Shown here: positions 35,001-61,131 of the stretch, piece by piece
Layout: the number at the start of each line of letters is the position of its first letter
How positions within the stretch are numbered: the stretch's first letter is position 1
Source: Bugula neritina
Lineage: Eukaryota > Animalia > Bryozoa
Direction: 5' to 3'
Length of the DNA stretch: 64,000 bases
Assembly: GCA_964035545.1 (NCBI GenBank)
Contig: OZ037770.1
Coordinates: forward strand, 10,360,973 to 10,424,972
Program-made: the position numbers and the translations under genes
Notes under the pieces: model-generated
What the model saw: the letters and a program-made list of their open reading frames with translations, nothing else
Told to the model about the DNA's origin: nothing
Database searches by the model: none

Positions 35001-38000
35001 TCGATCTTTGACATCTTTCCATGGATCGATCTCGCTGAGATCGGTACATGGAAAGCCGGTGCATGTCTCTAAAGGTCAAAGGTTAGTATACTGAACTAGA
35101 GCTGTTTGATGTCACGTCTCTAAAGGTTAAAGTTAATAATTCTGCAATCAACCTTGGTATGTGTAGTAAACTTCTCTAGCTGATGAGCTGAATTTTTGAC
35201 AAGATTTTCCTTAATTTGCTGTTTCCTAATAAACCATGCATGGTAGCCTCAGCCAATCAGGTTGTGTACCAACTCTAAAATATCTCCACTGTAACTTATA
35301 TCAGGTTTTGCAAGCTCAAGTGCAAAATGCATGCTTTTAAAAAACAGCTCTCCAACTTTTAAGCATTGTTGTATTCCATATCCAAGTTTATGAGTTTTGA
35401 GTTCATTTTGTAAACTATTAAAATTGATTGTTAAAAAGAAAAATTAAAAACTACATGTCCGCAAGAATACCCTGGTACAATTTCGCCACAACCTCAGCTG
35501 TTTCTGCATAACATACTTTATGGCTCTTGTATTGACATGGTGGTAAATTACTTGGTTTTATAGCAGCTGGGTAAAATTCAAACACTGAAATTTGAACACA
35601 AGTCTGATTGCCGAGTTTTACATGACCAGTTGATACTTGTATTTTGATTGGCCTAATATTTCACACTGTAGTTTATCTGAGATGACACTTCCCGCTTTAG
35701 GGATGCTATTATAGGCATTCGTATTGTGAAATCTGTTTATTGAAAGAAATATATTAGCTTACGTCACTATGCCAACTTTCTTACAAAGCTTGTAATAAAA
35801 TATGCAGCTACAACTTAGGCGACTTCATCGATGGTAGACACTGCTTGGAACCTCAAATCAACCACTGCTGTCACTTGTTAGTATGGTAAATCAATAGCGA
35901 GAGCGTAACACTGTAATGTTAGTGCTACCCTATATTCATCAGTTCTATTGTAAAATAGTATGTTAGGAACGTATAGGACATAAGAACATTAGTCTAGGGC
36001 AGTGGTTCACAACCTGGGGGGAATTTATACGTTTAAAGGGGGAATTTCGACTGAAAAATTCACACAATTTGTTGAAGACTTTTTGAGCTCTTGCAAGTTA
36101 CATGGGTAAGTTTTCACCTTAGTTCATTTGTATAACCAAACCATATTCTGCAATCTCAGTTTACTTCTAAATGAATGTGTTTATTAATTCCTCTACCTTA
36201 ACTGCTATCTGTGCTACTTTGAAGGGAGGTCAAAAAATCTGCAAAAACCAACAGGCCAACTTTCAGCAGCCATGCAAGTCAATCTCTATGAACTGTATAC
36301 TACTTACTTAGTGAATATATATATATATATATATGATACACTAAATAATCTGAACCTAAGAATGCAGGAGTGCAATCATTGCATATTATTGCATTTCATA
36401 GCAGCATCAATGTATTTAAAATTGTACTAAAGTGGTGGCATCTATCAAAAAAATGCTGTCGTTCCCCGGAATCGAATGAACTTTTATAGGAAAAGAACCT
36501 GTTCTAATTTTAGGTAAAAATTTCACACTAGTGTTAAATTTTCCCATACCCATGCACAACCCAAACCCCAAACCCCCCATCTTGAACCCCTAACCGCCAA
36601 CCTAAATCTTCAATCTTAATATTGAAAATATGCCATTTTTACCTAATTTTCCAAATCTGTGCCGATATTACCTATGCCATTATTACCTGTATCATTTTTA
36701 CCTGTGCCATTTTTACTGGATACCACCTGATCCAAAGATCGTTTTTCAAAAAATCTTCTTGGCATTTCTCTGAACTTTTAATGGAGTTTTAACAGTATTT
36801 CTTTGAGCTACCTCCTCAAAAATAAAGAGCTAGATTCTTAACTTGACATGTGATCTATTGCAACACTTTGCTGGAAAAATTTCAGAGGAATTACAAGAGG
36901 ATTTCATTGAGTTGTTGACAATTCAGCAATGAAGGTGATTTAAAATCTTCCCCAATTGATGTATTGTGGGTGGTGTTCAATTGAAATGGCACAGGTAATA
37001 ATGGTATTAATAAAAAAGTAGGTAAAAACGGTACATTTTCAATATTGGTGTGGGTGTTTGGAGGTAGGGTTTGAGGTGAGGAGTTTGGATTTGTATTGGG
37101 GTTTTTCGTTTAGGAAAATTTACCATTAGTGTGTCATTTTTATCTAAAATCTTTCTGGATTTCCACAAGCAAACTCTTCCCACACATAGCTGAAAAAGCA
37201 GAGTTTTGGTACCATGCAGCACCACATATTTACGTGAGGTAGGATTCTTATCAATTTAATTCAAAGAAAAACTGCCTTAACCTGCAGAGCGACTTAAAAC
37301 GGGTCTCATCAAAAATCGAGCCAGGCTTAAGCGAGCTGGCACACAATCATCAACTGCAGCCATAACATTAATAATTAAACTGCTGTGTGTTTTATAACAT
37401 AATAACAAGATAATATAACTATATTATGATAATTAAATTATATGCAAATATAATAGAACAATATATATTGCATTGTATCATATATAATCATTATGTCAGT
37501 CGTAAGTTTTTTTGGAAAAAGGGAAACTAATAGTCAACATTTGTGAAAGGGGGAAATAGTGTGAAAAAGGTTGGGAACCACTAGCCTAGGGTCTGTTTGT
37601 ATGTAGAGCAGTAGCACAGTCACAGCACATTCACACTACCTGCTCTATCTTGTCTATCAAACACATGAGTTGCAGTGATAATAATCATTTTGTGATTATG
37701 ATTATTGGCTAAAGAAAAAATGGAAATGCTAAAAGTTTGTTTGTGGAAGCAATGGATAGATGATAGATAGTTTAGTAAGAGGTGTACGATATGCTGTATT
37801 ACAATAGTAGCGACATAGGCCATATGCGTGTGTGTGTGTATATGTGTGTATGTAATATGAACAATAGTTCCAACAGTGTCGCCCGCTGACTTTCTCTTAA
37901 CTTGCTTAGTATTACATTTTACATTGTAGAAGAGAGGAGAGAAATAGAAGCAGAACTGGTTCCTGCAGCAGACATGATTATTAGTTTAGATCAAGGAGTG

Positions 38001-39127
38001 ACAACTCGTACTCTTCCTAAATCTCTCAAACTCATACAGTCTGTTGATGTTTCTGATAGCTGTTTGTCTGTCTGTAAAAATGAGGATAACACTTATGTAG
38101 GACTGGGTAATGGTGCAGGAATAGACAGAATAAATGAGCGTTTCAGTGTTTCCAAGTCTTTTGGTACTGTTGCTAAAAATGTAAATGGGATAGCAGCTTA
38201 CACCAACCAGTTGTATGCTTTAGTGTATGTCAGTGATCGCAATCCTCGTTGGGCTGTACATGTGTATGATTTTACTGGGAAACATGTGACCAGCTGGTTT
38301 CATTATGATAGTTGCAGTAGTGTAAACAACCTTGCTATTGCTGATGACCAGGTTGTAGTTCCTGATAGAGGCAATAAAAGACTTACGTTCTACTCTCTTA
38401 CCGAGGAGGTAATTAAACATGTATCCTGTCCTCTACTCAGTGATAGTCGTACAGCAATATGTGCAGCAGACAGATATTGTGTAGTAGTTTCTGAATTTGG
38501 TTCTTCTCAAGTATTTAAATTAGACTTGACAACAGAGAAAGTCATCTGGACATGCAAGGATGTATCTCAACCAGAAGGTGTGACCTGCTATAGAAGTAAA
38601 TATATTCTTGTGACTAACTGCATCAGTCAAACTACCGTCTGGATACTGGATGTGAAGACAGGTTAGTGATTTCCGCTTTTTAATGTGTGCATGAAAAGCA
38701 TATGTATATTTGACATGTAAAATTCGTTCCATATATACACTACATATTCCTGTATGATTATACTGAATATTGTATACACAAACCACAATCAGTGGGTTAG
38801 TGTGTTGGTAAAGCCATTTGATGACATATTCACTGTTCTACTGTATTTTATGGTGATCATATCCTCGTGTCATGGCATTGATTTCTCAGTATTGCAGGCA
38901 TATTGATTATAACTTTGTTAGCACATAACAAAATATAATAATACAACACTAAACAGTAAGATTTATTGAAACAGTGAATTTGATATACTGTAGGTACACA
39001 GTTATCTATGCTCAAAGATCCAACTGTTAGGAGTATTAGTAATGTACTTGATCTCCATGTGTATAAAGACATGCTGATTGTACCCAGAAATTTGGAGAAG
39101 AAAGTTCTATTTTACCAGCTCAATTAA
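30010..39127 (+). CDS. TRIM-like E3 ligase copy 3, ~608 aa
   Basis: Exons 30010-30167, 30314-30470, 30624-30807, 31351-31532, 32565-32735, 34141-34249, 37930-38661, 38994-39127 (TAA). Confidence 0.88.
31817..32048. repeat. (TA)n microsatellite
   Basis: About 230 bp of near-pure TA in intron 4 of copy 3. Confidence 0.97.
33292..34052 (-). mobile_element. Older copy of the CACCGGC MITE family
   Basis: Near-perfect TIRs; more diverged interior; intron 5 of copy 3. Confidence 0.85.
34284..35061 (-). mobile_element. CACCGGC MITE, near-identical to 21957-22734 but inverted
   Basis: Perfect TIRs; 3-bp TSD CAT; mirror ORFs 22464..22673+ and 34345..34554- differ by one residue. Confidence 0.88.
36000..37583 (+). 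mobile_element. Degenerate hAT-Charlie/Buster element with nested MITE fragments
   Basis: TIR CAGTGGTTCACAACCT / AGGTTGGGAACCACTA; 8-bp TSD GTCTAGGG/GCCTAGGG; transposase remnant [15 protein letters not shown] at ~37203-37247. Confidence 0.8.
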
Positions 39128-41992: not shown

Positions 41993-44900
41993 ATGGCTGC
42001 AGCAGAAGAAGTTGAGTGTGGATTCTGTTTACTAAAAGAAGGTTTAGAGAATCCCAAGTGTCTACCATGTGGTCATGTACACTGTTTACTATGTCTTACT
42101 CGTAATGTTGATGTGAATGACATGATCAAGTGTCCCTGGTGTAGGTAAGTTAGTTTTGTATATGTAAAGTAGAAGCATACTGTTGGTAAAAAAATATCTC
42201 ACATTTGCAACACATTGTAATGTATTTATCATGCACTTATTTATACATTTTTTGATGCTGTATGCTGTTTGTGTTGAAGAGAGGTATTTGATACGAATGT
42301 AGACAGCTTGGCTTCTGCAAACATAGCAGACAGCTACGTATCATGTGACGTATGCACTAAAAAGGGGCTGAAAAATGTACCAGCAGTCATATACTGCACT
42401 GTGTGCCGTAAACTCTTCTGCAGAAAACATGATGAGGTATTTGATTTATTGTAACAATTTACTTTCAGGTCCTGCCTTGTAAAATATATTGTTAGTAATT
42501 ACCCATTCTAATATTTTTGTGAATACTTGAATTATATTTCTCAGTAAATATATATTCTGTTATATTCAGTCACATGATGACACCAGTGATGACCACCAGA
42601 AGATGACCATATCTGACTACAGAATACAAGCCAAGAGACTGGAGAAAAGAGTTTGTCCTAAACACACAGCATATCCTTACTCACTGGGATGTAAAGTCTG
42701 TGTTCAGCTGTTCTGTGTGCAGTGTGTATCTCAGACTAACGTGTGTGTTGGAGGTACGGAAGTTTTATCCAAATATTTTTTGCAAAAGTTACTTGGCAAC
42801 TTGTGGTTTTCTTGATAATTCTTTTAGTAGTTGTGCGTTTGTTGCCTAAAATTACTTGGATCTTTGAATGGATATCACAAATCACAATGAATAAAGTTCA
42901 GGAGGATATCAAATAGTAAAAGCAGATCTGAAGGAGAAAATGTCATAACAGAATTGGATATTTCTTTTTATTGATAGGTGTGGATGTTAGAATTTGCTGG
43001 TTTTATTTTATTAATTTCATTGCCCTGCAATATGTTTTGTCAGCCTCAAATACGTTTCGTAGTTTCGTAGCAGCCTCAAATACACAGTTTAAACTTTCTA
43101 TCGGTAAGCCTAGGGCCACATGGTGCGTATTTTCGCATGCGAAAATTGAAATCACAAGTAGCAAAGGTGTCCACTGTGCGCGTTGAGAAAACCTTCGCAC
43201 TTGTCGCTCTGCATTTTCAACGCAAGTGCGAATCGTCTCTGTCGTCGTCACCTAATTGGCTGGTAGCTATTCAGCGAGCCCAATTTCTTTATTTAGTGCT
43301 ATATTCCAGTAAATTGCGTTTTATTGAAAGCGAGTGCGATTTAAAAATGAAAGCTTTATTTATCACGCATCACTGACGCTACAGTGGACACCTTTGCTAC
43401 TCGTGATTTTAATTTTCGCATGCGAAAATACGCACAGTGTGGCCCTAGGCTAACCTTTTTTCATTTACTGTAATATATTTTATCAGCTATATTTTATTTA
43501 TCATAACTTTTTGCATTTTCTTTAATTGGAGGACAACCAGTATTAACTCAAGATTGTTGGTTAAGCATGCAATTCAATAATTTTAATTACTTGTTCACAA
43601 TGAATTTATGTTGTATTACACAGATTCTGAGCATAAGCTGGTTAACTTGGATGACCTAATTAAAGACCTGATCAATATTGATGAATTGACTTCTGCAGAA
43701 GACAAGATGTCCGCCCACTTCAAACAAATATCTAAAACTCTATCTGATTTTGATACTGAGACTGGCAGATTGCTGATAATTCTTCATACACAGCGAGATC
43801 AGCATGTAAGATTATTATTGGTGTAATATGTTCAATATGGATTTCTTAGGTAGCAATGTAAAAATTTCACAGGTAATATGGCACAAATTAAAGAGTAGGT
43901 ACTAATGACACATTGATGTTAATTTTCCGAAACACCAAACTCAAACACCCATCCCAAACCTAAATCTCTATTCCAAACCCCTAACCACCACCCAAAACCC
44001 TAATACTGAAAATGTACCACTCTTACCTGTGCCATTTTTACCAGACATCATTTAATATGATTGTTGCATGTATTTTGTATTAGAAATTTACTTCAGCATG
44101 CTGTTTAATTCCTGTCATTAAATTTGCTTCAGATGTCAAATAGTTAGGCCATAAGTTGTGATCACTAAATATTTTACCTAGAAATAAAAGGGAAACAGTA
44201 CTTTACATAACTTCCTGTAATTTTATTTGCGTTAAGTTCTCAGCCTTATAATAATATATACTAAGTTAGCTGATATTGTAGTAATTCGTGCAATTACTGT
44301 GCGTGGGTTCCTAGCTTTGTAATTATAGTCTATTTATTCACATCAATAAAGTATTAAAGTGAGATTCACGAGGTTTATTTATTACTAAGTATATAGAAGA
44401 TACAAAAAGTACGCAGACTTGAAACACTACATCTTTACTCGCTTAGTACGCTCTCTCTACTACTACTACTACTACTCGCTGAGGGTTATCACATGACGCA
44501 CTCTGATTGGCTAAAGGGGCTTGGGGGACGCGCGTATTACGTACTCACTACACCGCCCCCCCCCAGCAGAAAGCCCTACTTTCTGATAACACATATACAG
44601 TTGATACTAAGACATAAAACGTTACAAAAACTATAAAACTGAGAGAGCGTATGGCACATAAAAGAAAGAACATGACTATGTACAGTAATAAAAAAAGTAT
44701 ATATAAAAAAAATATATAACAGTAAAACACACGATGGCACTGACGGGAGGCACTTGTAGTGAATAGTCCATGGTTAGAGATGCATACTTGTAGGTTACTA
44801 TAAGATTGTCACACTGAGGAATTGTTTGTTAGCACCGGGCATGAGAGGGGTTCGAGATGGGGCACCACCTGCGGTACCATCACGGGTAGGGAGTTTGGGG

Positions 44901-47900
44901 ATGTCGTCTTCAAGCGCTTCCTTTCATTCGGGCTACAGAGGCAGAGAGTGCCAGGAGTTCAGATGCGGCGGCAGAGATTCTCGGTGTCAGTCTTTGTACT
45001 TCTTTCTCTAATTCTCGTATCCGCTCTTCTGCTTCTCCTAGGTTCCGGGCGGGGGCAGAGTGCCGGTTGGGGGACGAAGATGGCCAACGCCGTTTACGAG
45101 AAGGCCTTGGGGAGACGGGGGGGGGGAGAGGGACGCCATCGCTGTGGTACTTCGATGCGTCGTAGCACGACTCTGGGTATGGAGTCGGGGCGGGGCACTG
45201 TGCGTGTGGGGGGTGATGGACGGGGTACGTGTGGTCTCCTATATCCGGGTGGTTTAGGGCAGGGTCCTTGCGTGATGGTCCTGGGTGCGGGGAATTCCTG
45301 ACGCAGCCGTTCGTAGCGAGCTGGGTCTGGTATGAATGGTCGGATGAGGTCAAGGAATTGTGGAAAGGAGGGTTCGTCGACTTCGAAAAGGTGTCCAACA
45401 TGGCATCCCATAGTCCGCTGGTGACGGAGGATGTAGTCCCTGTGGTAACTATATTCACCACAAGGACAAAAGGTGGTGAAATAATGTTGGGGAACGTGAA
45501 CTCGGAGTCTTCGTGGGGTGGTGAAATGAAGCTGGCATAAACGGCAGGTGGTGCATTGGTCGTCGCCCTTGTGTTCTCGTATAAGTGCTTCTGTGTCTGG
45601 GGTAACCCAGCATGGCTGATGTAAGAGTGCCTCCGGAAGTGTAGTGGGAACGGGTTCCTCGTTCCAAGCCATTTCCAATGACGGCATGTCACAAGGAAGA
45701 GGAGAGCGAGCTGTATCTAAAAGAGCAGAATTACTGTTAGATCGAGTGTGATCTTTACACCATAATTCTGATGACAACCGACTGTTACTAGTCTGGGAGT
45801 CATACATCTTTTTAGATAGAACTCGAGGGACTGAGTCGTGTCGTGTAGACTGACAGAGAGACATAGTGTCAAGCTCCAGATCTAGTAGATCGTCGGCCAT
45901 CGTTATGTTCTCGTCGCCTTTCACGTAAGACTCAGTCCCCAGTAGTTGTGATTCAATCAAGGCGATTAAATCAGAACTGACTGATGGTAGACTTGTTTCC
46001 ATGAGTGGAAATGTTAGCTCAGAGCAAGCTTACCTGAGAACCCGGTATTTGTAATCATACTCAGCGTTCCAGCTTGGATGTCCATGGATTGAGTTTGAAT
46101 GCGTCTGCCCTTGACAACGTCAGCGTAGGAAAAGACTGGGCAGCGTGGTTGTTGCGCACGGCTGGAACTATTTGCCCCGGGCGTAGTAGTTTTGTTTACC
46201 ACTCCGCCTTCGCAAAAGTTGAGATTTCCGTGGTGTTCACAACTCCCACGCTTTGTTGCCAGCCCTTCCGTACGGCGCCCAGCTGAACTTTCGTAACTGC
46301 CGTTTGAAACACGGTCACATACGAAGTCTTTCAGGTATGCTGGGGGTTGTCTAGTACGCTGTCCCCGTTCCAGGGGAGGTGACGTATCAGCTGGAGAGGG
46401 GGTTGTAGTTGTTGGTTGGGGCGGTGTACTCACTGGTGGGCTATTTTGCTCTACCTGTGGTGTTTCTAGCCCGTCGTTGATGATCGTGTTTCCCTCTCCG
46501 CTGTTGTCTCTGGATGGAGCCCTCCCACGGGGGGGTTTTGCACTTCCGGACGCGGATGCGGATCCGGAAGTGGTGGGGGTAGACTTGGTACTGGAGGCGG
46601 TGGGCGCACTTCCGTTGGTGGGAGTGGCGTTTCCTGCCTCACCAAGTCCTCCTCCCGCGGCACAACCACTTCGTATTCTTGTCCGTGCCGTTGCCGCCCG
46701 CGCGTTGCTGTCTGCCTCCTGGGCTCCAACAATGGGGGGGCTGCTCCTGCTGCTCCTGGGCTAGCCCAATACGGTTTCAAGCGGGCTTCATTCTGGACAG
46801 AGACCTGTCCAGATCGCTCCAACTTGTACGTATGATTGGGCATTGCCTCAACTACTACGTAGGGTCCCACAAACTTAGGCTGGAGCTTAGCCGCTTGTCC
46901 TCGACGCCTACGGTAGTTGACCATCCACACCCAGTCCCCAGTTTGATAGAGGGGTGGTTCCTGAGAGTCCTCTTGCCGTACCTGCCACTGCTTTGTCCGC
47001 AGTATTTCGTGTGCGGCCCTCAGGTCCTCTATCAATTTACTGGCATACTCGTGGATGGTATAGTCTTGCTCTGGGATGTGGTATGTGAGGTGGTCAGGCA
47101 CTCGCTTCTCTCGACCGAGCATCAGGAGGTTAGGGGTTTCCCCCGTACTGGTGTGTGGTGTACTACGGTAGGCCCGCATGACTTGCGGTAGTACCGTATC
47201 CCACTCCTCCTGACCCCGGCCGAGGAGCAGACTGCGCAGTGCATCGCCCAACATGCGGTTGTTGCGTTCCACCACCCCGTTGCCCTGAGGATGGTATGGG
47301 GTGGTCCTGCTTTGGTTTACTCCCCAGAGGCGGCAGAGGTCGCTCAACAGTTGGGACTGGAATTGAGCCCCCTGATCCGAATGTATTTGCTCGGGTAGTC
47401 CAAGATAGCAGAATACATTTTGGTTTAGCACCCTGGCCACCGTGGGGGCGGATGCATCTGGAATAGCCAGGGCGTCCGCCCACCGTGTAAAGTGGTCGGT
47501 TAATACTAGGATCCAACTGTTTCCTCTGGGGGTGACGGGCATGGGTCCGACTAGGTCGATAGCTACCACCTGCCATGGCCTTCCAGCATATAGCCTACGC
47601 CGTCCCGCTTCGCCAGGGAGACGGCCATGCTTGCTGGCCTGGCAGATTTCGCATTGTTTGACTCTACGCCGTACCTCCCGCTCCATGCCGGGCCAGTACC
47701 ACCGGAGCTGTAACTTGGAGAGCACCCTGCTTACCCCGGCATGGGCCTGTTTGTGGGTGTCCCATACTAACTCCCGGCGTATGGCGGCTGGGCAGATCAC
47801 CCTCTTTCTTCCATACTGGCTGTTGTGAGCTGCCACTGTGATGGTCAGCAGACCATCTGGCCCGATCCGCAGCAAGTCCCAACGTTGACAGTACGACCGT

Positions 47901-50900
47901 AACTCGGTGCATCCCTGCCGCAGTTGTTCTTCACTGGGTCGTCGCCCCTCCTTTTTGGCGCGATATACGTCGGCTACTACTCCGGGGAGGTCCTCCTAGA
48001 GTCTTCGTAGCTCCCTGACGTTATCAGCCAAGACAGGATTGGCACGGAGGCGTTGGATAGCCTCTGGGGGCGTAGTGGCCTTCTGTAGGAGTTGACCCTG
48101 GTCCCAGTCATACTCCGTTTCAGAGTGGTTCAATGCTCTCAACTTGGATTTTGGGGGACCTCCATCCCTCTTCTCGATGTTGAGGCATTGCTTGCACCCC
48201 TCGTCCGGTCGCCGGCTCAGTCCATCAGCATTGCCGTGTTTCTTACCGGGCCGATGCTCGATCCGGTAAGAGAACTCGGCCAGGACCTCGAGCCATCGGG
48301 CGACTTGACTGGACGGTTCTGCTCTCTTGCATAACCAAATCAAGGAGGCGTGATCAGTCCGCAAGCGGAACTTCCTGCCGTATAGATAAGGTCTGAAATG
48401 CTTCACCGACTTGATTACTGCCAGCAGTTCCTTTCGGGTAGTGCAGTAATTTCGTTCAGTGGGCGAGAGAGACTTACTGTAATAGGCCACGACCACTTCG
48501 CGGCCCTCCTGCACCTGGGACAGCACAGCGCCGACATTTTGGTCACTGGCGTCGGTATCGAGGATGTACTCCAGGCCAGGGTCTGGATAGGCTAAGATAG
48601 GGGCCTCTAGCAGGCGGCCCTTGAGGCAGTCGAACGCTCTCTGTTCGACGGGAGTCCACTGCCAGGTCACCCCCTTTGCGGTGAGCCGGTTTAACGGCTG
48701 CGCTACCCCCGCAAAGTCTGGTGTGTATTGCCTGTAATACCCTACCAGCCCCAGGAAAGCCCGTAGTCCGGTCAAATCCTGAGGGGTTACCCAATCTTCT
48801 ATAGCTCGTACTTTTTCAGGATCCGTCGCCACACCGTGTCGGCCGACGACGTGCCCCAGGTACTTCACCTCTGGCTGCAAGAGAGCGCACTTGGAGGGTT
48901 TGAGCTTCAGATTGGCACCTCGGAGTCGATCGAAGACCTCCCGCAGACGGCTGACGTGTGTTTGAAAGTCTCGGGAGATCACGATGACGTCGTCGAGGTA
49001 TACCAGCAGTGTCTTCCAGTGGAGTCCACTGAGGACCTGTTCCATGAGCCGCTGGAACGTGGCGGGGGCAGAAGTCAGTCCAAAGGGGAGGACTTTCCAC
49101 TTCCATAAGCCGTCCCGCGTGATGAACGCCGCCTTCTCCTGGGCGTCCGGGCTGAGAGGGACCTGCCAATAGCCGCTCAACAAGTCTAGCGTACTGAAGT
49201 ACTTGCTGCCGGCTAAGGCGTCCAGAGATTGGTCGATCCTGGGTAAGGGGTAGGCATCCTGTATGGTCACGCTATTGAGCTTGCGATAATCCACACAGAA
49301 CTGCCAACTGCCGTCTTTCTTTCGGACCAGGACGACCGGTGAGCTCCACGCACTATGTGCTGGCTCGATGAGGCCGCGGTCCAAAAGATCCCGGACTTGT
49401 TGGCTGACCTCCTTTTCCTTCTCGGGTCCCAGCCTCCTAGTGGGCTGGCGAATAGGGGTAGTCCCCGCAGCTAGCGGTATCTCATGACGGACGGCCGTGG
49501 TCAGGCCGACGTCATGGTCTCCGCTGCTGAACACGTCGCTATAATCACGTAGCAACTGAGCCATGGTCTGGCGTTCCACGTTGCCCGTGCAGCCGTCACA
49601 CGCTGCCTGGTATAGCTCTTTGACGTGTGGTGGGACGGTCCCCCGCCTAACTGACGGGCTCTGTTGGGGACCTTCCGTCGCAGCTCCCAGCGACGGCCCT
49701 ATATCCTCCTCCTGGATGGAGTGGAAGCGACCCAGCATGGATCCTGACAGCAATTGTACCGCTTAGGAGAAGGGGTTGACACACTGCACCAAGATCTCTC
49801 CTCGGTCAGTCAGCCAGTTAAGACTGCTGGCAAGTTGGATTCTTCTGTGCGCACCTTCGACAACCCCTAACCCCGAGAGTTGGCTATTGTTCACTCTGCA
49901 GTGAACGGTAGCCCGGGAGCGGCCGGGTATAGTACAGTTCCGTACTACCTGCACACCTCCCGCTAGGGGACGACCGAACTTGTCGACACAGGCGAGCTCC
50001 CTGCCGCCCATTAGCATGGCTGACTTGCTAAAGTCAATATGGCACCCGTGTCTCTTTAAGAACGGCATCCCCAGTATAGCATCTTCTTCGAGTTGGCTGA
50101 TGACGAAGGTTTCCTGAATGACCTGGTCGCGGACGCGCCCAGTCAGTTCTATGATACCGTAGAAAGGAATCCGCGACCCGTCAGCTAGGGTGCCCGGTTC
50201 CCCGGTATAGGGAGCTAAGGCTCCCCTCTCCCTAGGGGGGAGGGTGTCGAAGACCCGACGGCTGAGGAGATTAGTGGTACACCCGGAGTCTAACAGAAAG
50301 GTGACAGCTTTGCCAGCCACCTTCCCTGGCAAGAAGTAGCTGCCTCTGTGAGGTTGTACCCGTACTCCCCCAGCGTGCTCGGTCTCGGCCGAACGGGGCT
50401 GCGCCCGTTTGTTCCGCGGTTTGCGGGGCCGGTGAGAGTTTCCTTGGGGGGGGGTGTTTTGATCCTCCCCGATGCCCTGAGGGGGCTCGCTGGTCCGCTC
50501 CATTACTGGTAGCGGACCGAAGCGGTTGGTGAGAGGCAGAGAGAAGGGGTCTCGTGGTCGACCCGGCTGGCTGGTTCGGCGGGGTGTTTGCCATTGATGG
50601 GGGGCGGGCCGCTGGGCCCGTACGGGCTCCTGGCGACATCCACCCCGTTTTCTTCTCGGTTTGGGTCTCCGGAGCTCTGGAGGTCTCCGGGGAGGTTGTG
50701 GTTTCTGCTGCCGTTTGAATCGTGGGCCGCTTGGATGGCGCATTCCAAGCGTTGCATAGTGGGTCTGGGGGGTTTTGTTGCTGGTCTCTTATATCTCCTG
50801 GAGTGGTTGTATGCTATGGTCGCCATCAATTGTCCCAGTTTAGTCATCAAGCGGTCCATCTCCATCTCTATAGGGGGGCTAGTGGTAGCGGCAGCTATTC

Positions 50901-53900
50901 GGACCAGGTGGTCTGGCTCTCTAGAGGTCCGCGGAGCAGTCTCCTCCGTCTTGTAGAGCTGCTCGGCCACAGCGTAGGCCTTGTTTTCTTGAGTTGCGGC
51001 CTCGATCGTGGTTACTCCCTTGGCTTGTAACTGGTGGTGGAAGTCCAAAGTGTTGAGGGACTGTACAAAATCTTCGAATGTATAGCGCCGTCTGTGTGTT
51101 TCTGGCAGATCGCTATACGCGGTCCGTGCCAGTCTCTGCACCAGAGTGGCGTGATCAGGAAGCGGTGTACATGTCTTGCAGAGCAGTCCCTGCAGCTTGG
51201 ACTTGACGACGGCAACGGGTATGCCAAAACGGGCCCGTAGCGTAGCAATGATCCCGTTTACGCTAGACCCCCACCCGTACGGCTTGGCTTCTTCCGTCAG
51301 TGCCATTCGTAGTTTTGCAAGAGTTACTCTTGGCGGCCATCTTGTAATGGCTGCAACTTCACGGAACTCTTGAATGAATTGTTCAACATCTTCAAGGCCC
51401 GTGAACACGGGAACCTCTAATGTATGTCTATACGCCTCCTCTCCAGCTCTGAGAGGGCCTATGATAATGTTTCGCTCACCTTCTTCTATTGAAGTTACAC
51501 TTTTGTCCATGATGTTCTAATACTTTCCCATTGTCTTTATATAGTAGCTAGTAATCCCACCGCTGCCACCACTGTAGTAATTCGTGCAATTACTGTGCGT
51601 GAGTTCCTAGCTTTGTAATTATAGTCTATTTATCCACATCAATAAAGTATTTAAGTGAGATTCACGAGGTTTATTTATTACTAAGTATATAGAAGATACA
51701 AAAAGTACGCAGACTTGAAACACTACATCTTTACTCGCTTAGTACGCTCTCTCTACTACTACTACTACTACTCGCTGAGGGTTATCACATGACGCACTCT
51801 GATTGGCTAAAGGGGCTTGGGGGACGCGCGTATTACGTACTCACTACAATATCATATTATCAAACACTTGTTTTAGTTGACTGAAGTGAGACTAAAGTAT
51901 GAGAAACTGGAGAAGAAATTCTTGGCTAGTAGAAAGAAGACTAAAGAGGAACTGAACAGATACATGGAGAGAGAAGTTGGAACTGCTTTGTCTCAACTGA
52001 GCAACAGTAGAATGAAGATAGAAGCTCAGCTTAGACAAAACCATCAGGTTTGTATAGAATTCAATATCTTTTACTAAACTCTAAAGTGTGTTTTCCATTT
52101 TGCTGATTTCCTATCTTCTAATAATTTCTACTTCATGATTTACACTTTGCGGTATACAAGCTATGCTGTTAGGTAGGCTGGTTTCTTTTCTCAATTACTT
52201 ATAAACACAAATAAATGTGTGTGTTATATAATAGTATGTAATAGAGTATATTATAATTATAGTGGTGCATTTTTAGAATATTGTTTGTTATATAATATAG
52301 TGTTTGTTATATAATAGTGTGTGTTTTATAATAGTATATGCTATGTAATAGTGTGCTATGTATTGAATGTTAAACAAATTAGCAATATTTAGAGCCAGTA
52401 ACATATTCACCGGCTTTCCATGGCTCTCAGATCGATATCAGTGAAATCGATCCATGGAAAGACGTCAAACATCGATCTCTATCGATCTGAGCAACTCAGA
52501 TCAATCTCAAGGCAGTAAGACCATGGAAAGACGCCAGATCGATCTGAGAAGTAGAAAAATGACTGCTCACTATGAAATGTTGTCTACTAATAAAATGATA
52601 ACTTATTGCTAATTACTAAGCAAAGTACTTAATAATTACGATAACCACCTTTTCAGATGCCAAAACTTTGACTTTCAACACAATGATTAAGAAAACTTAA
52701 TTATATAAAATTATAGACCGTAGGAGGTACAAAAAGTGGTAACATTTAAATGACTAGTAAAACGTACTTTCGTTAGTTATTTGCTGCGTAATTTTAAGCC
52801 TAACAGTTCTGTAAGTTTATGAATAATCTGCAAAACAGCTATTAATTTTATATAAGCTGTCAAGCATGATATTGTTGTATTTTTGTGTACTACCAATTGG
52901 GTGTTATTGTGTGTTGATAGTTACTGCATATCCACTTGTAAGGTTATGTAAAGAGCCGAACTAGTTGATCATTTAAAGAGAGAACTGCATTTGAATCACT
53001 TATACACAACATAGATAAATCATAGGTACAAAAGAGAACGACTATAATCTGTAAAAAAGTGTTACATATAGTTAACCTAGTTGTCTATTACTGTCAAGGC
53101 TGGCTGTGGGCGCCGGAAGGTATCACTTGTATACGTGGAGCGGATCCTGATTATATGAGCCAAGGTTCCAGCGCTGTCATCGTGGAGTATAACGGAGCGC
53201 CGCATGGGACTGCACCATGGCTTGCGGAGTTGTCATCCTTGACGATATTTACATCATAATCTATATAGAGTCGCCCAATGCAACAAACACGGTCAAGAAA
53301 GTAGGTTTGTAATGAGCGGCCATTACCCAAAGAAGAAAGAAATGTCCACATGAAAGGATAGGGGACGAGCTAGTGTTAAGAACCAAGGCATACCCGGAGT
53401 TGGGTTAGCGGGTACGAATATTTTGTTTCAGGCGGCCTACTGAGTCTTTTAGTTGACTTAGTCCATGAGTGGCAGCCAGCAGTTGGGGTGCAAGCTACCC
53501 AAACTCCGCTTGGAGTTTCCGTATCTGCCGCTCAGCCTCGTGGATAGAGTCACAAGAAGTCCTGGGGCTCTTGACAGCCTGGCCAGCCCTTTGAGGAGAA
53601 GGTCGCCGACGGGTGAGGGCGTCCAACTGGCATTGGCGGCGTATTCACACGATTGATCCTCATTGGGCGATGAGAATGGGGCTGGCAAGCGAATGCCAGC
53701 TTAGTGGGCAGTCTCATCCGATCAGGCTCCAAAATGGGTTCTGGTGCTAAGAGTTGTGTGGTCGAGAATCCTTTGAGCAAAACAAGCAAGTTTCTCGGAT
53801 TTCTGATAAGTGGCCGAATGAGGGCGTAGAACTGTATGAAGCTGTGCTTATCTACCAGAAGAACAGCTCCTCTATAACAGCTTGTCGTCTGTTGGTGACA

Positions 53901-56900
53901 CAGGATGTAGCGTTCGTTAGAACTGTGCTCTCTACATGAGCAAAATGTCATCATGTAATGTTGGCTCATATGAGTTTTCAGTTCTCTGGTAGAGTCAAAT
54001 GTCTCCTGGCACAGCTGACAATCCGTGTTATCAATGTCTTCCCAGTCGGCCTGTATCTGTCAGTTGCCGGGTCTACCCAGTGCCATCGTCTGTGGTGAGG
54101 GTCCGGTAGCTCGTTCTGCGTATTTAGAAGGAGAAGAGAAGGTGGCTAACTTGATAACATGACATCGTCCCAGATGAGCTTGGGTGACATAGAGGCACCC
54201 GCGGTAGCAGGTGGAGTGGTATCTAAAAGGGCAGAATTAGATTTGACCCCTAAGGATCTGAATATTCTAACACAAGTGAGACCATACATTATACAGTCTG
54301 AGAATCGCAACCCTTTTACATACACTCGTGAGATCATTCACAATGGGGGGTAGACTGACCAAGAGCTACGGATTCCAGTAAAAGTTCTAATAGATCCCTT
54401 GTCAGTTCATGTTCTCCCCACCGTTACCCATTGTCAAAATCTCCAGCTAGTCCAACTTCACTAAATTAGCTATGCAGAACTGAACTGATGGCAGACCCGT
54501 TTTCATACTAATCAGAATACTAGGCCTGATCGACTTACCTCGAAACTCAGTATTTGGTTGCATACTTAAACATTTAGAGATAAAGTATGAGATAGTACTT
54601 TAACTACGTCGGCGTATGGAAAAGACTTTGTACTGTTGGTGGATTGATTCTGTCCACAGCTCCGCCCTCGCAAAATTCACTTTCACTTCTGGAGGCACAA
54701 CTCCTACGCTGCCCGCAGCAATTCCTTGCGAGGCCCACCACTTGACTCAGTGATCTCCATTTCGTAGGCAGTCGCAGACGACGTCTTGCAAATAAGGCGG
54801 GGGTTGCCGTGTCTGCTAGCTTTTTTCTAGACACAGCGGAGACTCTACAGGTAGACCCACAGGATTCACAAGGGGAGCCGCCTGAATGGGGGAGCCACTA
54901 TCAGCTTCAGCCTCGTCGTTTGAGTTAGGACCGTCCTCTGGAAGGAAGGTCCCACCTCCCATGGCCTGGATTGGGTGCAGGGGGTGGCAGGATAAGAAAA
55001 GTTGCTAGAGGCGGCCGCCTTTCTTCTGGTGGAAGGGGTGACCGCTCGTCCCTCACCAGATCCCTGTCCTATAGCACAACCACTTCAAACTCTGGTCTGT
55101 TTGTATCCACCCCCGCATCGCTGTCTGCCTCCTGGGCTCGAGCAACGGGGGTGCTTTACCTGCCGTATCAGGCCTAGCCCAATACGGTTTCAAGCAAACC
55201 TCATTCTGAAGAGACACCTGCCCTGAACGTTCGATCTTGTATGTATGATTGGCAGAGCCTCAATTACCAATAGAGCCCCACGAACTTGGGCTGTAACTTA
55301 GCCGCTTGTCCGCGGTGCCTGCGGTAGTTGGCCATCTAGACCCAGTCCCCCACTTGATAAGGGGGAGGCTCATCAGAGTCCTGGATCAATACTTGCCATT
55401 GCTTCTCTCGAAGCATTTTGTGTGCAGCCCTCATGCGTTCCACCATCTCCTCCACGTACTTATGTACAGAGTTATCGTCATTGGGAATGTGATAGGTCAG
55501 GTGGTCAGGGACCCGGGTCTCTCGACAGAGCATCAAGAAGTTGGGGGGCTTCACTAGTCCTAGTGTGACTGGTACTGCGGTGGGTCCTCATAACCTGTGG
55601 AAGTACCATATCCCATTCTTGGCCACGGCCGAGGAGCATCTCCTACATGCGGTTGTTACGCTTCACAACCACATTAGCTTGAGGAACGTACGAGGTAGTC
55701 CTGCTTTGACTTACCCCCCCCCCCCAGAGTCGACAGAGGTCACTCATAAGTTGCGACTAGAACTGGGCACTTTGGTCCAAATGTATCTGCTCAAGGAGGC
55801 CGAGATAGCAGAAAACATTCTGGTCAAGCACCTGGGCCACAGTTGGACCCGACACGTCTGGGATAGCCAGGGTGTTGACCCACCGAGTAAAGTGGTCTAT
55901 GAGCACCAAGATCCAGCTGTTGCCTCGGGGTGTCGGGGGCATGGGGCCTACCAGATCAACAGCTACCACCTGCCATGGTTGACCAGGTTAATGCCGTCGC
56001 CGCCCCGAATCGCTTGGGGTCGGACTTGCTTACTGGTCTGGTAGATCTCACACTGTTTCACTTTGAGCCGCACATCACGCCCCATCTTTGGTTAGTACCG
56101 CCGGAGTTGTAGCTTGGCGAGTACCCACTAGACTCCTGCGTGAACCTGCTTGTGGGTTTCCCAAATTAACTCCCGGTTGATGGCAAAGGGACAGACCATC
56201 CGCTCCCACCTCAGGTGACCGCCGTTGGCAGCCAACTTGATGGTCAGAAGCCCAGCCTCTTTGATCCGCAAAGAGTCCCAGCGGTGAAAACACATCTGGA
56301 GTTCATCGCACCCTTGCTGCTGCTGCTCCTCACCGGGTTGCTTGCCCGCCTTCTCGGGTCGGTAAACGTCGGTTATTACTCCAAGCAATGTTTAATGGAA
56401 TTTCAGCTCACTGACATTACCAACCAAAATGGGTTGATGCGGAGAGCGTGCACAGCATCGGCAGAATTGTCAGCCACCAGCCGACCATGCTTCCAGCTTC
56501 ACGCCTCTCCGTTTTCAGGTTGTGCCTCAACCTCGGATCACGAGAGGTCTGTGACACTCCTCTCAATGTTGAGACACTGTCTGCATCGTCCGTCCGTATT
56601 GCCGTGTTTCTTCCCGGATCAATAATCGAGTCGGTAGAAGAACTAGGCCAGGATTTCTAGCCATCGTGCGACCATGCTGGAAGGTTCAGCCTTGTTACAC
56701 AACCAAATCAATGAGGCATAATCCATTTACAGCCGGAACATTCCGCCATAGAGATAGGGTCAGGAAGGCTTCACTGCTTTAATTACTGCCAGGAGCTCCT
56801 TCCTGTAATAAGCAATGACTACCTATCGACTCTCCTGGATCTGCAATAGTGCAGAACCCACATTGTGGTCGCTGGCATCAGTGTCCAGGATGTATTCCCA

Positions 56901-59900
56901 TGCAGGGTCGGGGTAGGCCAAGACGAGCGCTCTGAACAAGGAACCCTTGAGGCGGTCGAATGCTTGCAGTTCAGCCATTGGATCCCCTTTGCAGTGAGCC
57001 AATTCCACGGCTGCGCTATTCTCACAAAATCTGGTATGTACTGCCAGTAATATCCTAACTTCCTCCGTGTCAAAGGGCACTCCCTGCGAAGGTGCCCGCG
57101 GTTACCACACTCCTAACAGGTGATAGCCAGATCTCTCGGTGGTCCCGATCACGACCTCAAGGGTCTGTGAGCCGGCCTCGCCGCTGGGGATTGTGTAAGC
57201 GCCTCCATCATTTTCGCCACCGTGTCGGTCACTTGCACAACCTTAGAGGCTGTCGAAGACTTTGTAGTGGCGACAGCTATGCGGTTCACCATCTCAGCCT
57301 CACTAAGAGTAGTTGCCAAACTACTTTAACCTGACAGGACCCCACACGACTCCTGTGTAACTGAGTAGCCAACAGGTAAACCTCACCTTCATGCAGCGCA
57401 TCTTCGACCGTCTCGACTCACCTCGATAAAAACTGGTGATGGAGTCCTAAGTCATTTACCGACTGCACAAACTCATCGAAGTGTACCTCTCATAGTTAAC
57501 AGATGGCAGGTTACCGTGCACGATTTGTGCTAGCGGTTTAACAGCAGCAGCATGTTCTTGCAAGAAAGTGCGCGTGTCGCGCGCAGCCCTTGCGAGCGAA
57601 CTCTGGCGTCTATAGCAGAGAGGCCAAATCGAGCCCGTAATGCAGCAAAGATACTGTTGACATCGGGTCCTAACCCATAAGATGTGGCCTTATCTGTCAA
57701 CGCCAGCTGCAATTTCAACAGGGCTACACGGGGTGGCCATTGGGTGACGGCTGCAACGTCACTGAACTCCTGAATGAATTGCTCTACTTCCTCATTGCCG
57801 GTAAATATGGGGGCCTTCAGGCTGTACTTCTCACCAAGTAGTTCCTTGTGAGCTTCCTCATCACATGGCACTGGATTTTCAAGAACAATTTGAATTGTGG
57901 GCTCACCTTCCCTTTGTCGCGGAGGTTACGCAGGGTTTTCCACCATGGCAGAAACTCCATCATTGTCTGCCGCCATTATAATCCCTCTTTTTTGTCCGGA
58001 TAGCGGTTGCATTGACACACAATTATCCCACCGCTGCCACCACTGTTGTAGCTTTGTGCACTACTAATTGGGTGCTATTGTGTGTTGATAGTTACTGCAT
58101 ATCCACTTGTGAGGTTATGTAAAGAACGAAACTAGTTGATCGTTTAAAGAGAGAACTGCATTAGAATTACTTATACACAAAAGAGATAAATCATGAGTAT
58201 AAAAAAAACAAGTATTATCTGCAAAAAAGTGTTACATATAGTTAACCTAGTTGTCTATTACTGTCAAGACTGGCTGTGGGTGCCGGAAGGTATCACTAAT
58301 ATATGTAGAGTGGATCCCGACTGGATGAGCCTAGGGTCCGGCGGCGTCAGTGTAGAGTATGACAGGGCGCCGTGTGGGACTGTGGCATGGCTTGCGGAGT
58401 TGTCGTCCTTGAATATATTTACACCATAATCTATGTAGTCATGTTTAGCAGGGAACAGAGAGGGGTATACTTACCCTAGCCATTACAATATTTAAATTAT
58501 TTATCCTAAATTGGGCAAATTACTTTACACTAAAACCTTTACTGCGTAGAGTTTATAGTTGGCGTTAAATCTTAGACTATGGAAATTTTGTTTTTCAACA
58601 ACAGTAGCGTTAATTACTCAGATGGGTGAATAAATTACACTATTTAAGTATTCTTCACTTAAGAGGAGGCAACTCCGCGAGATCGACCTAACACTCTCAT
58701 GGAAAACCGATAGCTCTGGGCGAGTTCAATCTGAGATCGATTCATGGAAAGCCAGTGAATATTTAACATAAAATATGAGCAGTGACAGAAAGATGTGAAA
58801 TATATATTAGTTATTTTTTATCTGTCTAGCAACTGTTCATATGTGGTCACATGTTACAGGTGGATCTGGTTGAAGGATTTGCAGAGATTAAAGACAGAAT
58901 ACAGAGACTGATATCTGTTGAGATACCTAAACTAAAGCTGTGTGATGTCATGTCTTTAAAGGTCAAAGGTTAGTATACTAGACTAGAGCTGTGTGATGTC
59001 ATGTTTCTAAAGGTCAAAGGTTAGTATACTACACTAGAGCTGTGTGATGTCATGTCTTTAAAGGTCAATGGTTAGTATACTAGACTCTTGGAATTCAAGC
59101 CTGATTTGTCAATTCAAGTCCTTCATTAAGCTGCCAGTTTGTATTATAATTGTAATGTGAATTATGTTGTATGTATAAACTATGCACGCACATACACACA
59201 CTATGTATAATATCTTGTAGAAGGGAAGAAAGATGTGAAAGTAGACTTGGTTCCTGCAGCAGACATGATTATTAGTTTAGATCAAGAAGTGACAACTTCT
59301 ACTCTTCCTAATTCTTTCACGCTTATACAGTCTGTTGATGTTTCTAATAACTGTTGGTCTGTCTGTGAATATCATGAAAACGTATACATAGGAATGTACA
59401 AGAGGATAGATAGACTATGTGGAGGTTTTGTTGTTGGGAATACATTCATTGGTGTTAATAGTAATGCGAATGCAGTTTCAGTTTATAAGAACTGTTTGTA
59501 TGCTTTGGTGCGTAGGAGTAATTGGGAGGTACATGTGTATGATCTTACTGGGAAACAGGTGACCAGCTGGTCTCACCATGATAGTAGTGGGTATGTAAAC
59601 AAACTTGCTATTGTTGACAACCACGTTGTAGTTCCTGATAGACGCAATAGGAAACTTACAATCTACTCTCTTACTGGGGAGGTGATTAAACATGTCCTAT
59701 GTGCTCTACTCAGTAATAGTCATACAGCAATATGTGCAGCAGACAGACATTGTGTAGTAGTTTCTGACTCTGGTTCCTCTCAAGTATTTAAACTAGACTT
59801 GACAACAGAGAAAGTCATTTGGACATGCAAGGATGTCTCTGAATCACAAGGTGTGACCTGCTATAGAAGTAAATATATTCTTGTGACTAACCACAGCAGT

Positions 59901-61131
59901 AAAACCACCATCTGGATACTGGATGTGGAGACAGGTTGGTGATTCCAGTATTAAAATGATGTGTTGGTACAAACTGCATTTATATTTGACATATATAAAC
60001 TTTGTTCCATAAGATATACACTTCATAATATTTTCTCAACATATTGTCTATCGAACACACAAATCACACTCTGTGGGTGAGTGTGTTAATAAGCAATTTC
60101 ATCACAGCATTGACAGATATACTGCATATAATGCTGCTTAAACCATACAAGAGTTTAACTTAGCTTATACATGTATACCTTCTAGCATGTTGTGCACTAT
60201 TTATAAATGTACAATGCTGGTTACCAACTGATAACTATATATATTATGTATTATTATGAAGTTGTTATTCATATGTTGAAGTTTGAAGATTTGTTTTCTA
60301 GTGCAGGGAATTGATATGCCATGTAACAGAATATAGTAATCTCGGCACATGCCTAAAATGTATAGCTACAAGTTTTTTCTCTCAGTTTCTGGATATATAT
60401 TATATTTAGTCTATCTTGCCTATAGTAAACTGGTTATATTGTAGGTAAACAGTTATCTAAGCTAGAAGAAACAACTGTTAGGAGTAATAGTAGTGTATTT
60501 GATCTCCATGTATGTAAAGACATGCTGATTGTCCCCAGGTATTCAGAGAAGAAAATTATATTCTACCAACTCAACTGGACAGGTATTATGTCTATAGTAG
60601 GAGTTATGTCTCTTTCATAGGAAAAAAAAGAACTTTAAATTAAACATGCTGCACTCAGTTTATGTCAAGAGGAGACAATTAATCCCAAAATCCTAAGTTT
60701 GAGAAAGCAAGAGCTTATAATGACCTATTGCAACAAAATGTCAAAGAACATTGTAACTCTGATTTTGAAAAATAGAGTCTGTCAATTTATTTGCTATGAC
60801 ATGAAACAACGAAACTAGTCCAAGATTCTGTTTGCTTTCATTTCTGTCCAATCTAATTAAGTTTTATTCTCACTGTCTATTCTGTCTATTCTATCACTGT
60901 TTATTCTGCTATACTCTCAAAACCTAATTGTCCAATAGAAATACTGCTTGTCTGGCTGGATTTTACTTGTACTTGTACTTGTTACTTGTGTCTTTGTCTC
61001 TCATACTACTAGTTGCTATACTTTCTAAATGACTAATAGTTGTGATAAGAGAATATACTGTTGATAAAAGTATTTATTAAATATCTTGAGTTGCTTTCTT
61101 AATACTCAGTATATTTATTACAGGAAAATAG
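41993..61131 (+). CDS. TRIM-like E3 ligase copy 4, ~604 aa, introns expanded by two LTR retrotransposons
   Basis: Exons 41993-42144, 42280-42436, 42570-42753, 43624-43805, 51877-52047, 58860-58968, 59221-59934, 60445-60582 (paralogous stop reads TGG), plus predicted 61124-61131 (TAG). Confidence 0.82.
43108..43450. mobile_element. PIF/Harbinger-type MITE (long hairpin)
   Basis: ~70-bp TIR GCCTAGGGCCACA..AAGGTGTCCACTGT; TAA TSD on both sides. Confidence 0.85.
43851..44048. mobile_element. MITE at the site homologous to 6541-6791 (intron 4 of copy 4)
   Basis: Same motif and position relative to exon 4; absent in copy 3. Confidence 0.6.
44910..46002 (-). CDS. Accessory ORF of Gypsy A: C2H2 zinc finger(s), Pro/Arg-rich linker, C-terminal coiled coil (1-nt frameshift at G10 run 45117-45126)
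   Basis: CRLCQLHFTTPRRLRVHVPQH then CPCGEYSYHRDYILRHQRTMGCH; the coiled coil EAEERIRELEKEVQRL..SVARMK lies in the adjacent frame; both parts have homologues in Gypsy B. Confidence 0.7.
46014..50743 (-). pseudogene. pol: Pol of Gypsy A (protease LLDSGC, RT YLDD, RNase H DTDAS, integrase H-H-C-C / D,D35E / GPY, tail RTRQPPAYLKDFV), disrupted
   Basis: ORFs 49763..50743, 47996..49753 and 46466..47875 share one frame, separated by stops at 49763-49765 and 47996-47998; tail ORF 46014..46433 is in a shifted frame. Confidence 0.9.
50503..51510 (-). CDS. gag: Gag-like protein of Gypsy A
   Basis: PVFTGLEDVEQFIQEF..WPPRV..LRARFG retrotransposon capsid-like motif; first ORF after the PBS; homologous to 57530..57871. 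Confidence 0.75.
   Translation of the reverse strand: MDKSVTSIEEGERNIIIGPLRAGEEAYRHTLEVPVFTGLEDVEQFIQEFREVAAITRWPPRVTLAKLRMALTEEAKPYGWGSSVNGIIATLRARFGIPVAVVKSKLQGLLCKTCTPLPDHATLVQRLARTAYSDLPETHRRRYTFEDFVQSLNTLDFHHQLQAKGVTTIEAATQENKAYAVAEQLYKTEETAPRTSREPDHLVRIAAATTSPPIEMEMDRLMTKLGQLMATIAYNHSRRYKRPATKPPRPTMQRLECAIQAAHDSNGSRNHNLPGDLQSSGDPNREENGVDVARSPYGPSGPPPINGKHPAEPASRVDHETPSLCLSPTASVRYQ
51554..51571 (-). other. Primer-binding site complementary to the tRNA-Leu 3' end
   Basis: Minus strand TGGTGGCAGCGGTGGGAT, 1 nt from the 5' LTR; identical PBS at 58025-58042. Confidence 0.85.
52408..58757 (+). mobile_element. CACCGGC MITE split by a nested Gypsy element
   Basis: Left half 52408-52872 and right half 58488-58757 (ends CATGGAAAGCCAGTG) join into a complete family member. 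Confidence 0.85.
52873..58487 (-). mobile_element. Ty3/Gypsy LTR retrotransposon B, older, internally deleted (protease and most of RT missing)
   Basis: LTRs 52873-~53326 and 58044-58487 (visibly over 10% diverged), ATAT TSD, tRNA-Leu PBS, gag remnant 57530-57871, RNase H (DTDAS) ~56620-57080, fragmented integrase ~55150-56390, zinc-finger/coiled-coil remnant 53405-54222. Confidence 0.92.

Follow-up and report, generated by a model that had tools for sequence, protein, structure and literature searches.

The question raised by this locus is whether a putative spliceosomal intron carried by two neighbouring Gypsy elements, A and B, both on the minus strand, is indeed spliced, and what the element would gain from it. 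The window considered here is a stretch of 64,000 nucleotides of Bugula neritina contig OZ037770.1. A first-pass annotation of this stretch had proposed that a conserved intron with a mostly non-conserved interior joins the tail behind integrase, in frame, to a zinc-finger and coiled-coil module, yielding either an integrase–finger isoform or an env-like subgenomic mRNA. The elements and their main parts are as follows.

44277-51848, minus strand: element A, a Gypsy element
51573-51848, minus strand: 5' LTR of A, 276 nt, TG..CA, with 3 differences from the 3' LTR
51553-51572, minus strand: primer-binding site of A, 19 of 20 nt common to B
50506-51516, minus strand: ORF of A in the gag position, without Pfam match
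46469-50788, minus strand: pol of A, with protease, RT, RNase H and integrase with an SH3-like end
46059-46517, minus strand: conserved Pol tail, RQPPAYLKDFVCD ... SYADVVK, with 51 relatives
44277-44580, minus strand: purine tract and 3' LTR of A (LTR 44277-44552)
58044-58438, minus strand: 5' LTR of B, approximate, 84-89% identical to 52873-53268

The structural hallmarks of Ty3/Gypsy elements are present, namely paired TG..CA LTRs, a target duplication (the 4-bp ATAT on both sides of A), a primer-binding site, presumably tRNA-Leu-like, and a purine tract, and pol of element A displays the corresponding domain order, protease–RT–RNase H–integrase. In this copy, the pol of A is broken near 49,765, 47,997 and 46,500. 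Element B is an older copy (its LTRs are 84-89% alike) and is more decayed than A. Both elements sit between the third and the fourth of four similar host ORFs on the plus strand (8693-9838, 23437-24240, 37890-38663 and 59211-59939), which give weak beta-propeller matches (PQQ_2, WD40-like in three of the four). Three head-to-tail copies of a 51-nt unit are found at 58927-59086.

The predicted introns lie immediately behind the Pol tail.

45717-46033, minus strand: predicted intron of A, 317 nt, a 31-nt spacer followed by 95 conserved codons
54223-54538, minus strand: predicted intron of B, 316 nt, with stops and frameshifts from decay
45716-45733, minus strand: acceptor block of A, a pyrimidine tract and TAG|AT with a branch-like CTAAC just upstream; the top-scoring 18-nt window

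In element A, the donor reads CAG|GTAAGC, with its GT at 46033-46032, and the acceptor CTAAC..TTCTGCTCTTTTAG|AT, with its AG at 45718-45717, while B has a GAG|GTAAGT donor (54538) and an acceptor at 54223; both introns are in phase 1 with the zinc-finger frame. Donors, acceptors, lengths and phase are as the first-pass annotation had described them, and the resemblance of the acceptors goes beyond chance. When both elements were compared, the windows starting at 45733-45730 matched at 17 of 18 positions and ranked first of 1485 18-nt windows, for which the mean is 8.8 and no stretch outside the acceptor exceeds 16. The donor window gives a weaker signal, with 8 of 9 identical positions (14% of windows reach 7). 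The acceptor is also among the few YAG sites that pass a simple filter, 4 out of 239 for A and 3 out of 154 for B; the threshold of this filter was the target sites' own score, a stricter earlier filter having missed both sites. As for AG|GTRAG, it occurs at two sites in the 7572 nt of element A, against 0.9 expected from shuffles, and at four sites in 5611 nt of element B, against 0.64 expected.

A second source of variation was X1, a single sequencing run, probably of DNA, providing thousands of short variant contigs. Among the 40 of 48 rows listed, no variant falls within -17 to +8 of the acceptor or -3 to +10 of the donor. Three contigs match on the intron side but lose their fit right at the acceptor, where the exon begins (at 45716); in divergent relatives, the acceptor seems to be retained and the linker that follows it not. 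The 46034/45716 joint is absent among the 15 of 51 joints listed, a result uninformative on splicing, as such contigs drop rare forms; around the intron, the sole joint listed is 45795-45866.

At the protein level, the residue pair across the acceptor fits NYA|G in 65 of 67 relatives, the first residue varying between L, S, V and I, a pattern that is not unique to this place (3 of 296 column pairs behave alike), and the equivalent position of remote homologs is, as judged by eye, LI-D, LV-D, VV-D or LL-D. Within one homolog cluster, the divergence of P0284 from P0158, P0283 and P0285 starts exactly at I-V|G, as would that between spliced and unspliced forms. At the donor, two relatives of the B type, P0149 and P0189, read R-D-K where others read G-K, and have probably lost the GT. 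The start typical of a spliced form, NTxFxD, was found in none of the relatives collected, as expected for genes called on DNA. We regard the splice signals as real and constrained, and infer splicing from them; that this intron is actually spliced is, in our judgement, probable.

The interior of the intron is itself a coding segment.

45718-46002, minus strand: intron-internal coding segment, with an acidic N-terminus, predicted to be disordered

The ATG at 46002 opens a frame that crosses the acceptor and continues into the fingers. When A is compared with B, identity at the three codon positions amounts to 54/95, 59/94 and 38/95 in this interior (46002-45717; 0.57, 0.63 and 0.40) and to 44/86, 54/85 and 34/85 in the finger domain (0.51, 0.64 and 0.40), a comparison free of the bias of gene callers towards open frames, and the notion that most of the interior is not conserved must be abandoned. 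A search with the accessory ORF recovered 95 relatives, the full-length ones having 355-366 aa (one has 383), and 93 of them were aligned once the two weakest had been dropped. Forty of these 93 reach codon 1, which is always Met, and 37 of the 40 show no indel up to the acceptor, with a mean pairwise identity of 0.73 and a minimum of 0.54, the count of open frames being inflated by protein searches and gene callers, which select them. Of the 29 changes listed for the interior in X1, 13 are synonymous, where 8.5 would be expected (P=0.05). Because the codon-position identities match and synonymous changes are in excess in X1, the interior is judged to be constrained as strongly as the fingers. 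And because this frame is constrained while the splice signals are also kept, the most fitting reading is that of a segment that codes for protein and can also be spliced. In the first-pass annotation, purifying selection on the frame beginning METSLPSV..., together with non-conserved GT and AG, was to speak against the intron; the coding constraint is there, and the signals have been kept, not lost.

Residues 1-55 of protein P0002, which fall within this segment, contain 12 D/E to 1 K/R. Codons 35-49 show a hydrophobic spacing that is NES-like or activation-domain-like. The x3-x2-x1 pattern of the NES consensus, a loose one, is formed by L40/L44/M47/L49 in 33 of 52 relatives and by M35/L39/L42/L44 in 39 of 52, and a similar spacing appears in the remote homologs P0157, P0223, P0176 and P0247.

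Downstream of the acceptor, the rest of the accessory protein is encoded.

45271-45651, minus strand: folded domain of about 120 aa, with a C2H2 finger, a CxC-H-C finger, a YxVD strand and helices
45031-45270, minus strand: Pro/Ser/Arg-rich linker with RKRR, its frame broken in this copy near 45,120
44913-45030, minus strand: C-terminal predicted coiled-coil helix, in a separate frame in A and in the same ORF in relatives
53553-54059, minus strand: remnant of the zinc-finger domain of B (zf-C2H2, E=0.004)

The whole is a conserved accessory ORF of about 365 aa placed in the env slot, the first 95 residues of which are intron-encoded. In element A, a frameshift splits off the C-terminal helix in which the full-length ORFs of relatives end. 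The model of P0002 is of low confidence at residues 14-119, well folded at 121-240 and a single helix at 316-364, and the finger domain predicted alone reaches a pLDDT of 95.2 and a pTM of 0.86. Across 66 sequences of this domain, C39, H52, C62 and C64 are invariant, and a C-x2-C-x12-H-x3-H finger is present, with C153, C156, H169 and H173 found in 91-95%. Similarity to known families is low: Pfam yields weak zf-C2H2 matches only, in 14 of 66 sequences, the first match of an Atlas search is zf-C2H2 at 0.90, with a recognition of 2012, also weak, and by structure the domain comes closest to DNA-binding finger pairs, again weakly (Kaiso, with Z 3.5 and rmsd 2.8 over 57 of 127 residues). Neither the full model, compared with the PDB, nor that of the finger domain, compared with PDB representatives (best Z 3.5) and with viral models (best E 0.8), gave a whole-domain match, which does not show that the fold is new. 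Residues 246-310 of P0002 include 14 basic and 2 acidic positions, and RKRR is present in most full-length relatives. The zinc-finger plus coiled-coil module proposed at first is supported. An env protein was considered for this slot and rejected: P0002 contains no transmembrane stretch (maximal 19-aa hydropathy 0.67), and has a finger domain and a long helix instead.

What is spliced to this module depends on the sequence preceding the donor, and a second candidate donor exists near the start of gag.

46034-46058, minus strand: short exon of A, ATG plus 7 codons plus 1 nt, in phase with the fingers
54539-54563, minus strand: short exon of B, MQPNTEFR
51474-51483, minus strand: candidate phase-1 donor of A, GAAG|GTGAGC with its GT at 51479, after the first ten codons of gag
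57901-57910, minus strand: gag-start donor of B, GAAG|GTGAGC, GT at 57906, phase 1, in a decayed gag frame

Residues compatible with the ATG of the short exon, E-[YH]-[DEG], occur in all of the 15 relatives for which the Pol frame was read, and its M is kept at the same spacing in P0102, P0106, P0116, P0134, P0138, P0149, P0189 and P0240. In elements of the A type, this short frame is closed by a stop a few codons beyond the donor and, hence, the conserved ATG would yield a long product only upon removal of the intron. In the B-type relatives P0240, P0149 and P0189, the short exon and the whole interior form one frame, the spacer before the internal ATG being 32 nt versus 31 nt in A; likewise, the unspliced short exon of element B meets no stop as far as its internal ATG at 54506.

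The Pol frame behaves differently from what had been proposed. Among 51 Pol-tail relatives, some ends of which may be contig ends, 21 end upstream of the short-exon ATG; another 15, of which 14 were recognised by pattern and P0108 by eye, have V[PL][RG] as their last residues, and the codon that follows overlaps the donor GTAA; five run in the short-exon frame, which look like products of separate frameshifts, and the remaining 10 are short or otherwise shifted. The Pol frame meets the donor in phase 2 and is, consequently, out of frame with the fingers. In element A, the integrase frame ends at 46469 and the tail frame reaching the donor (46760-46017) is another one, so the apparent Pol–finger fusion of this copy is read as the result of copy-specific frameshifts; in element B, the frame of the Pol-tail YADVVK has its stop ahead of the donor, and NTEFR is read in a different one. 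In neither copy in the window is integrase in frame with the donor. The idea that splicing joins the post-integrase tail in frame to the fingers is not borne out by these observations.

The gag-start donor is the only other AG|GTRAG site of element A. The 10-mer GAAGGTGAGC is identical near the gag start of A and B, with dissimilar flanks, and its phase 1 makes it compatible with the 45717 acceptor; it is known from two copies and was noticed post hoc. The env-like subgenomic mRNA offered as an alternative by the first annotation fits this arrangement. Regarding an internal promoter, the Pol tail gave a negative result: its third-position identity (0.50) does not exceed that of integrase (0.53). 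At 46202-46255 on the minus strand, about 150-200 nt upstream of the short exon, two short Pol-tail blocks show an A/B identity of 15-16 of 18; they are possibly promoter elements, or merely coding.

The distribution of the finger module provides a wider view. A profile search with it gave 272 clusters at E<=0.001, 150 of which were listed. P0290 (757 aa), a distant relative, carries an integrase C-terminus 57% identical to that of A (E=2e-39) in one open frame with the finger module; it is one of nine members of its cluster, the remaining ones being shorter, and the intron-segment profile matches it at E 0.3 only. An integrase–finger fusion, not supported as a splice product in the A family given the Pol ends described above, is found in P0290 by another route. 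In addition, P0269, P0298 and P0299, likewise from distant families, have the Pol end motif in frame upstream of the module, and in P0247, P0214 and P0138 the Pol tail is in frame through the donor position. In P0188, P0200 and P0268, pol pieces are joined straight to the finger region, and these are probably internal deletions. The only named relatives of the finger domain are proteins of Watersipora and Bugula. Annotated bryozoan genes carry one or two copies of it (P0282/P0151 and P0241 in Watersipora; P0286 and P0289, with consecutive locus tags, in Bugula); some have a C-terminal helix, and P0241, P0286 and P0289 share an N-terminal motif. This may reflect capture or domestication, in either direction. 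No DNA loci of the element were found among metagenome and viral contigs.

These elements can be integrated in a model that we hold to have about an even chance of being right: that A and B encode an accessory nuclear regulator made in two isoforms by means of a coding intron. It builds on the following observations: an accessory ORF is present, the intron interior is constrained as coding sequence and the acceptor at the nucleotide level, an ATG is conserved upstream, and the Pol frame ends before or in the donor in most relatives. The long isoform, started at the internal ATG (46002), would comprise the acidic, NES-like N-terminus, the finger pair, the basic patch and the coiled coil; in B-type elements, reading through from the short exon could also produce it, with an intron that would then measure 318 nt and keep the frame. 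Splicing would remove the acidic N-terminus and leave a shorter zinc-finger/coiled-coil protein, produced either from the Pol-tail donor with its own ATG or, as env-type mRNAs are, from the phase-1 donor near the gag start. The fingers may bind the DNA of the element and the acidic segment activate it, in which case the spliced form, keeping fingers, RKRR and coiled coil, would damp the long form and act as a brake by which the element regulates itself. Given an accessory protein, a role as transcription regulator is plausible, at somewhat less than even chances. The model gives no account of the promoter or upstream acceptor that would place the short exon near a 5' end, which counts against it, and the in-frame modules of P0290 and of P0269, P0298 and P0299 suit an integrase-linked role equally well.

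The rival that fares best, which we nonetheless consider unlikely, retains the same two isoforms but makes the protein an RNA export adaptor like Rev or CERV, in which the leucine-rich motif coded by the intron is the NES, RKRR is the import signal, and splicing drops the NES as feedback. The hydrophobic spacing described above, seen in a majority of relatives and in remote homologs, argues for it, as does the precedent of CERV, a spliced, Gag-leader-sharing Gypsy export factor with a Cys finger and an NLS and NES, as described in the available text of PMC10309623. However, the pattern is loose and acidic activation domains fit it equally, its register is broken in a third of relatives, and the fingers resemble C2H2 pairs and not the predicted C4 finger of CERV.

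Rather improbable, in turn, is that the module serves as a targeting domain of integrase through fusion to Pol, spliced here and by read-through elsewhere, as chromodomains do in chromoviruses. The single frame of P0290, the upstream Pol end motif of P0269, P0298 and P0299, and the Pol tail crossing the donor in P0247, P0214 and P0138 speak in its favor; yet P0290 is one of nine cluster members, the others being shorter, a protease may cleave a polyprotein fusion, the A-family Pol frame ends upstream of the short exon or at the donor in phase 2 in 21 and 15 of the 51 relatives, respectively, and integrase is out of frame with the donor in both window copies.

Most doubtful is that nothing is functionally spliced and the ORF from 46002 is an ordinary single-exon accessory ORF, its signals being a side effect of conserved codons (SNNNSALLD; R-stop) or remnants of an exon captured from the host: the interior is coding, NNNSAL is kept at the protein level, P0149 and P0189 have probably lost the donor, and annotated bryozoan genes contain the same domain, but the acceptor surpasses every finger-coding window in nucleotide identity despite lying in a predicted disordered stretch, and the spacing and phase of the upstream ATG are kept in several subfamilies. 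Our preferred reading remains the two-isoform nuclear regulator.

Introns of this kind recall exitrons, which have been described in cellular genes and are defined by RNA evidence. The likeness consists of a stop-free coding segment between GT and AG, which in B-type elements is in frame: the canonical GT-AG is under constraint (with the exception of P0149 and P0189, where the GT is probably lost), and the interior codes for protein in the frame of the exon that follows. Reading from the upstream exon through the unspliced intron, in contrast, holds for the B type (P0240, P0149, P0189 and the start of B) and fails for the A type, whose unspliced short exon is out of frame, so that the long form needs the internal ATG. 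Furthermore, while exitrons are defined by RNA, the intron of A and B is predicted from sequence.

Of the systems described in Gypsy elements, the module is most like CERV of Cer1, a Ty3/Gypsy element of C. elegans, in outline and by description, with a different architecture. According to the available text of PMC10309623, CERV has 517 aa, is encoded by five exons overlapping gag, and possesses H, M and G domains and a C4-type finger. Common to both are a non-env accessory protein, a spliced mRNA (inferred here), a Cys-rich finger and a predicted coiled coil; the candidate NLS and NES of CERV have possible counterparts in RKRR and in the loose hydrophobic pattern of 33-39 of 52 relatives. In contrast to CERV, the ORF of A and B follows pol, it has a C2H2 and CxC-H-C pair, and the intron itself is coding; CERV shares its N-terminus with Gag, which for A and B would follow from the gag-start donor, and the function of CERV has been demonstrated, while that of the protein of A and B is a proposal. 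In the Tor elements of Oikopleura, according to the available text of PMC4402516, expression of the 3' ORF relies either on a splice donor close to where gag starts (Tor3a) or on an internal promoter located within pol or behind it (Tor3b/4b), and the same two routes are proposed for A and B; however, the Tor ORF is a membrane glycoprotein, whereas that of A and B lacks a transmembrane stretch and has its acceptor inside the coding frame.

In the bdelloid LTR retrotransposons covered by the available text of PMC5408684, captured non-env ORF3s of GDSL, DEDDy, TM or coiled-coil types occupy the env slot, some thus sharing a coiled coil with A and B, although the word 'zinc' is absent from that text and the ORF of A and B is a zinc-finger one. 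Fusions of integrase to reader domains are known from several phyla (10.1101/2021.11.30.470311, in its available text), and P0290 resembles chromoviruses in having a chromatin- or DNA-binding module C-terminal to integrase; in A and B, however, the module is a separate ORF, and 'C2H2' is absent from that same text. No chromodomain or PHD was detected in element A, and no chromodomain in the integrase or tail of A or in P0290. Bryozoan elements carrying env have another layout, as far as the available text of PMC13524379 tells, and that of PMC9341512 holds nothing on this element type. The literature consulted, with Repbase, Dfam, most subscription papers and supplements outside its scope, gave no account of such elements, and CERV is the one characterised nuclear accessory protein found in it among Gypsy elements.

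A and B are to be placed, by analogy, among the Gypsy elements with spliced accessory ORFs, known for instance from CERV, from which the predicted coding intron sets them apart. It is tempting, if only tentatively and with the odds clearly against it, to see here a widespread and so far undescribed class of animal Gypsy elements resembling complex retroviruses, with a nuclear regulator based on a novel two-finger domain, switched by splicing between activating and damping forms, wired to integrase in sister families and traded with bryozoan genes. One module occurs in this lineage in three wirings, as a separate ORF, as a spliceable ORF and as an integrase fusion, as well as in host genes, which makes the lineage a compact case of retroelements gaining and redeploying regulatory or targeting domains. 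If the model is true, it would provide a second nuclear accessory protein of Gypsy elements, seemingly unrelated to the first and with a spliceable coding segment, and would mean that Gypsy elements can carry their own feedback control.
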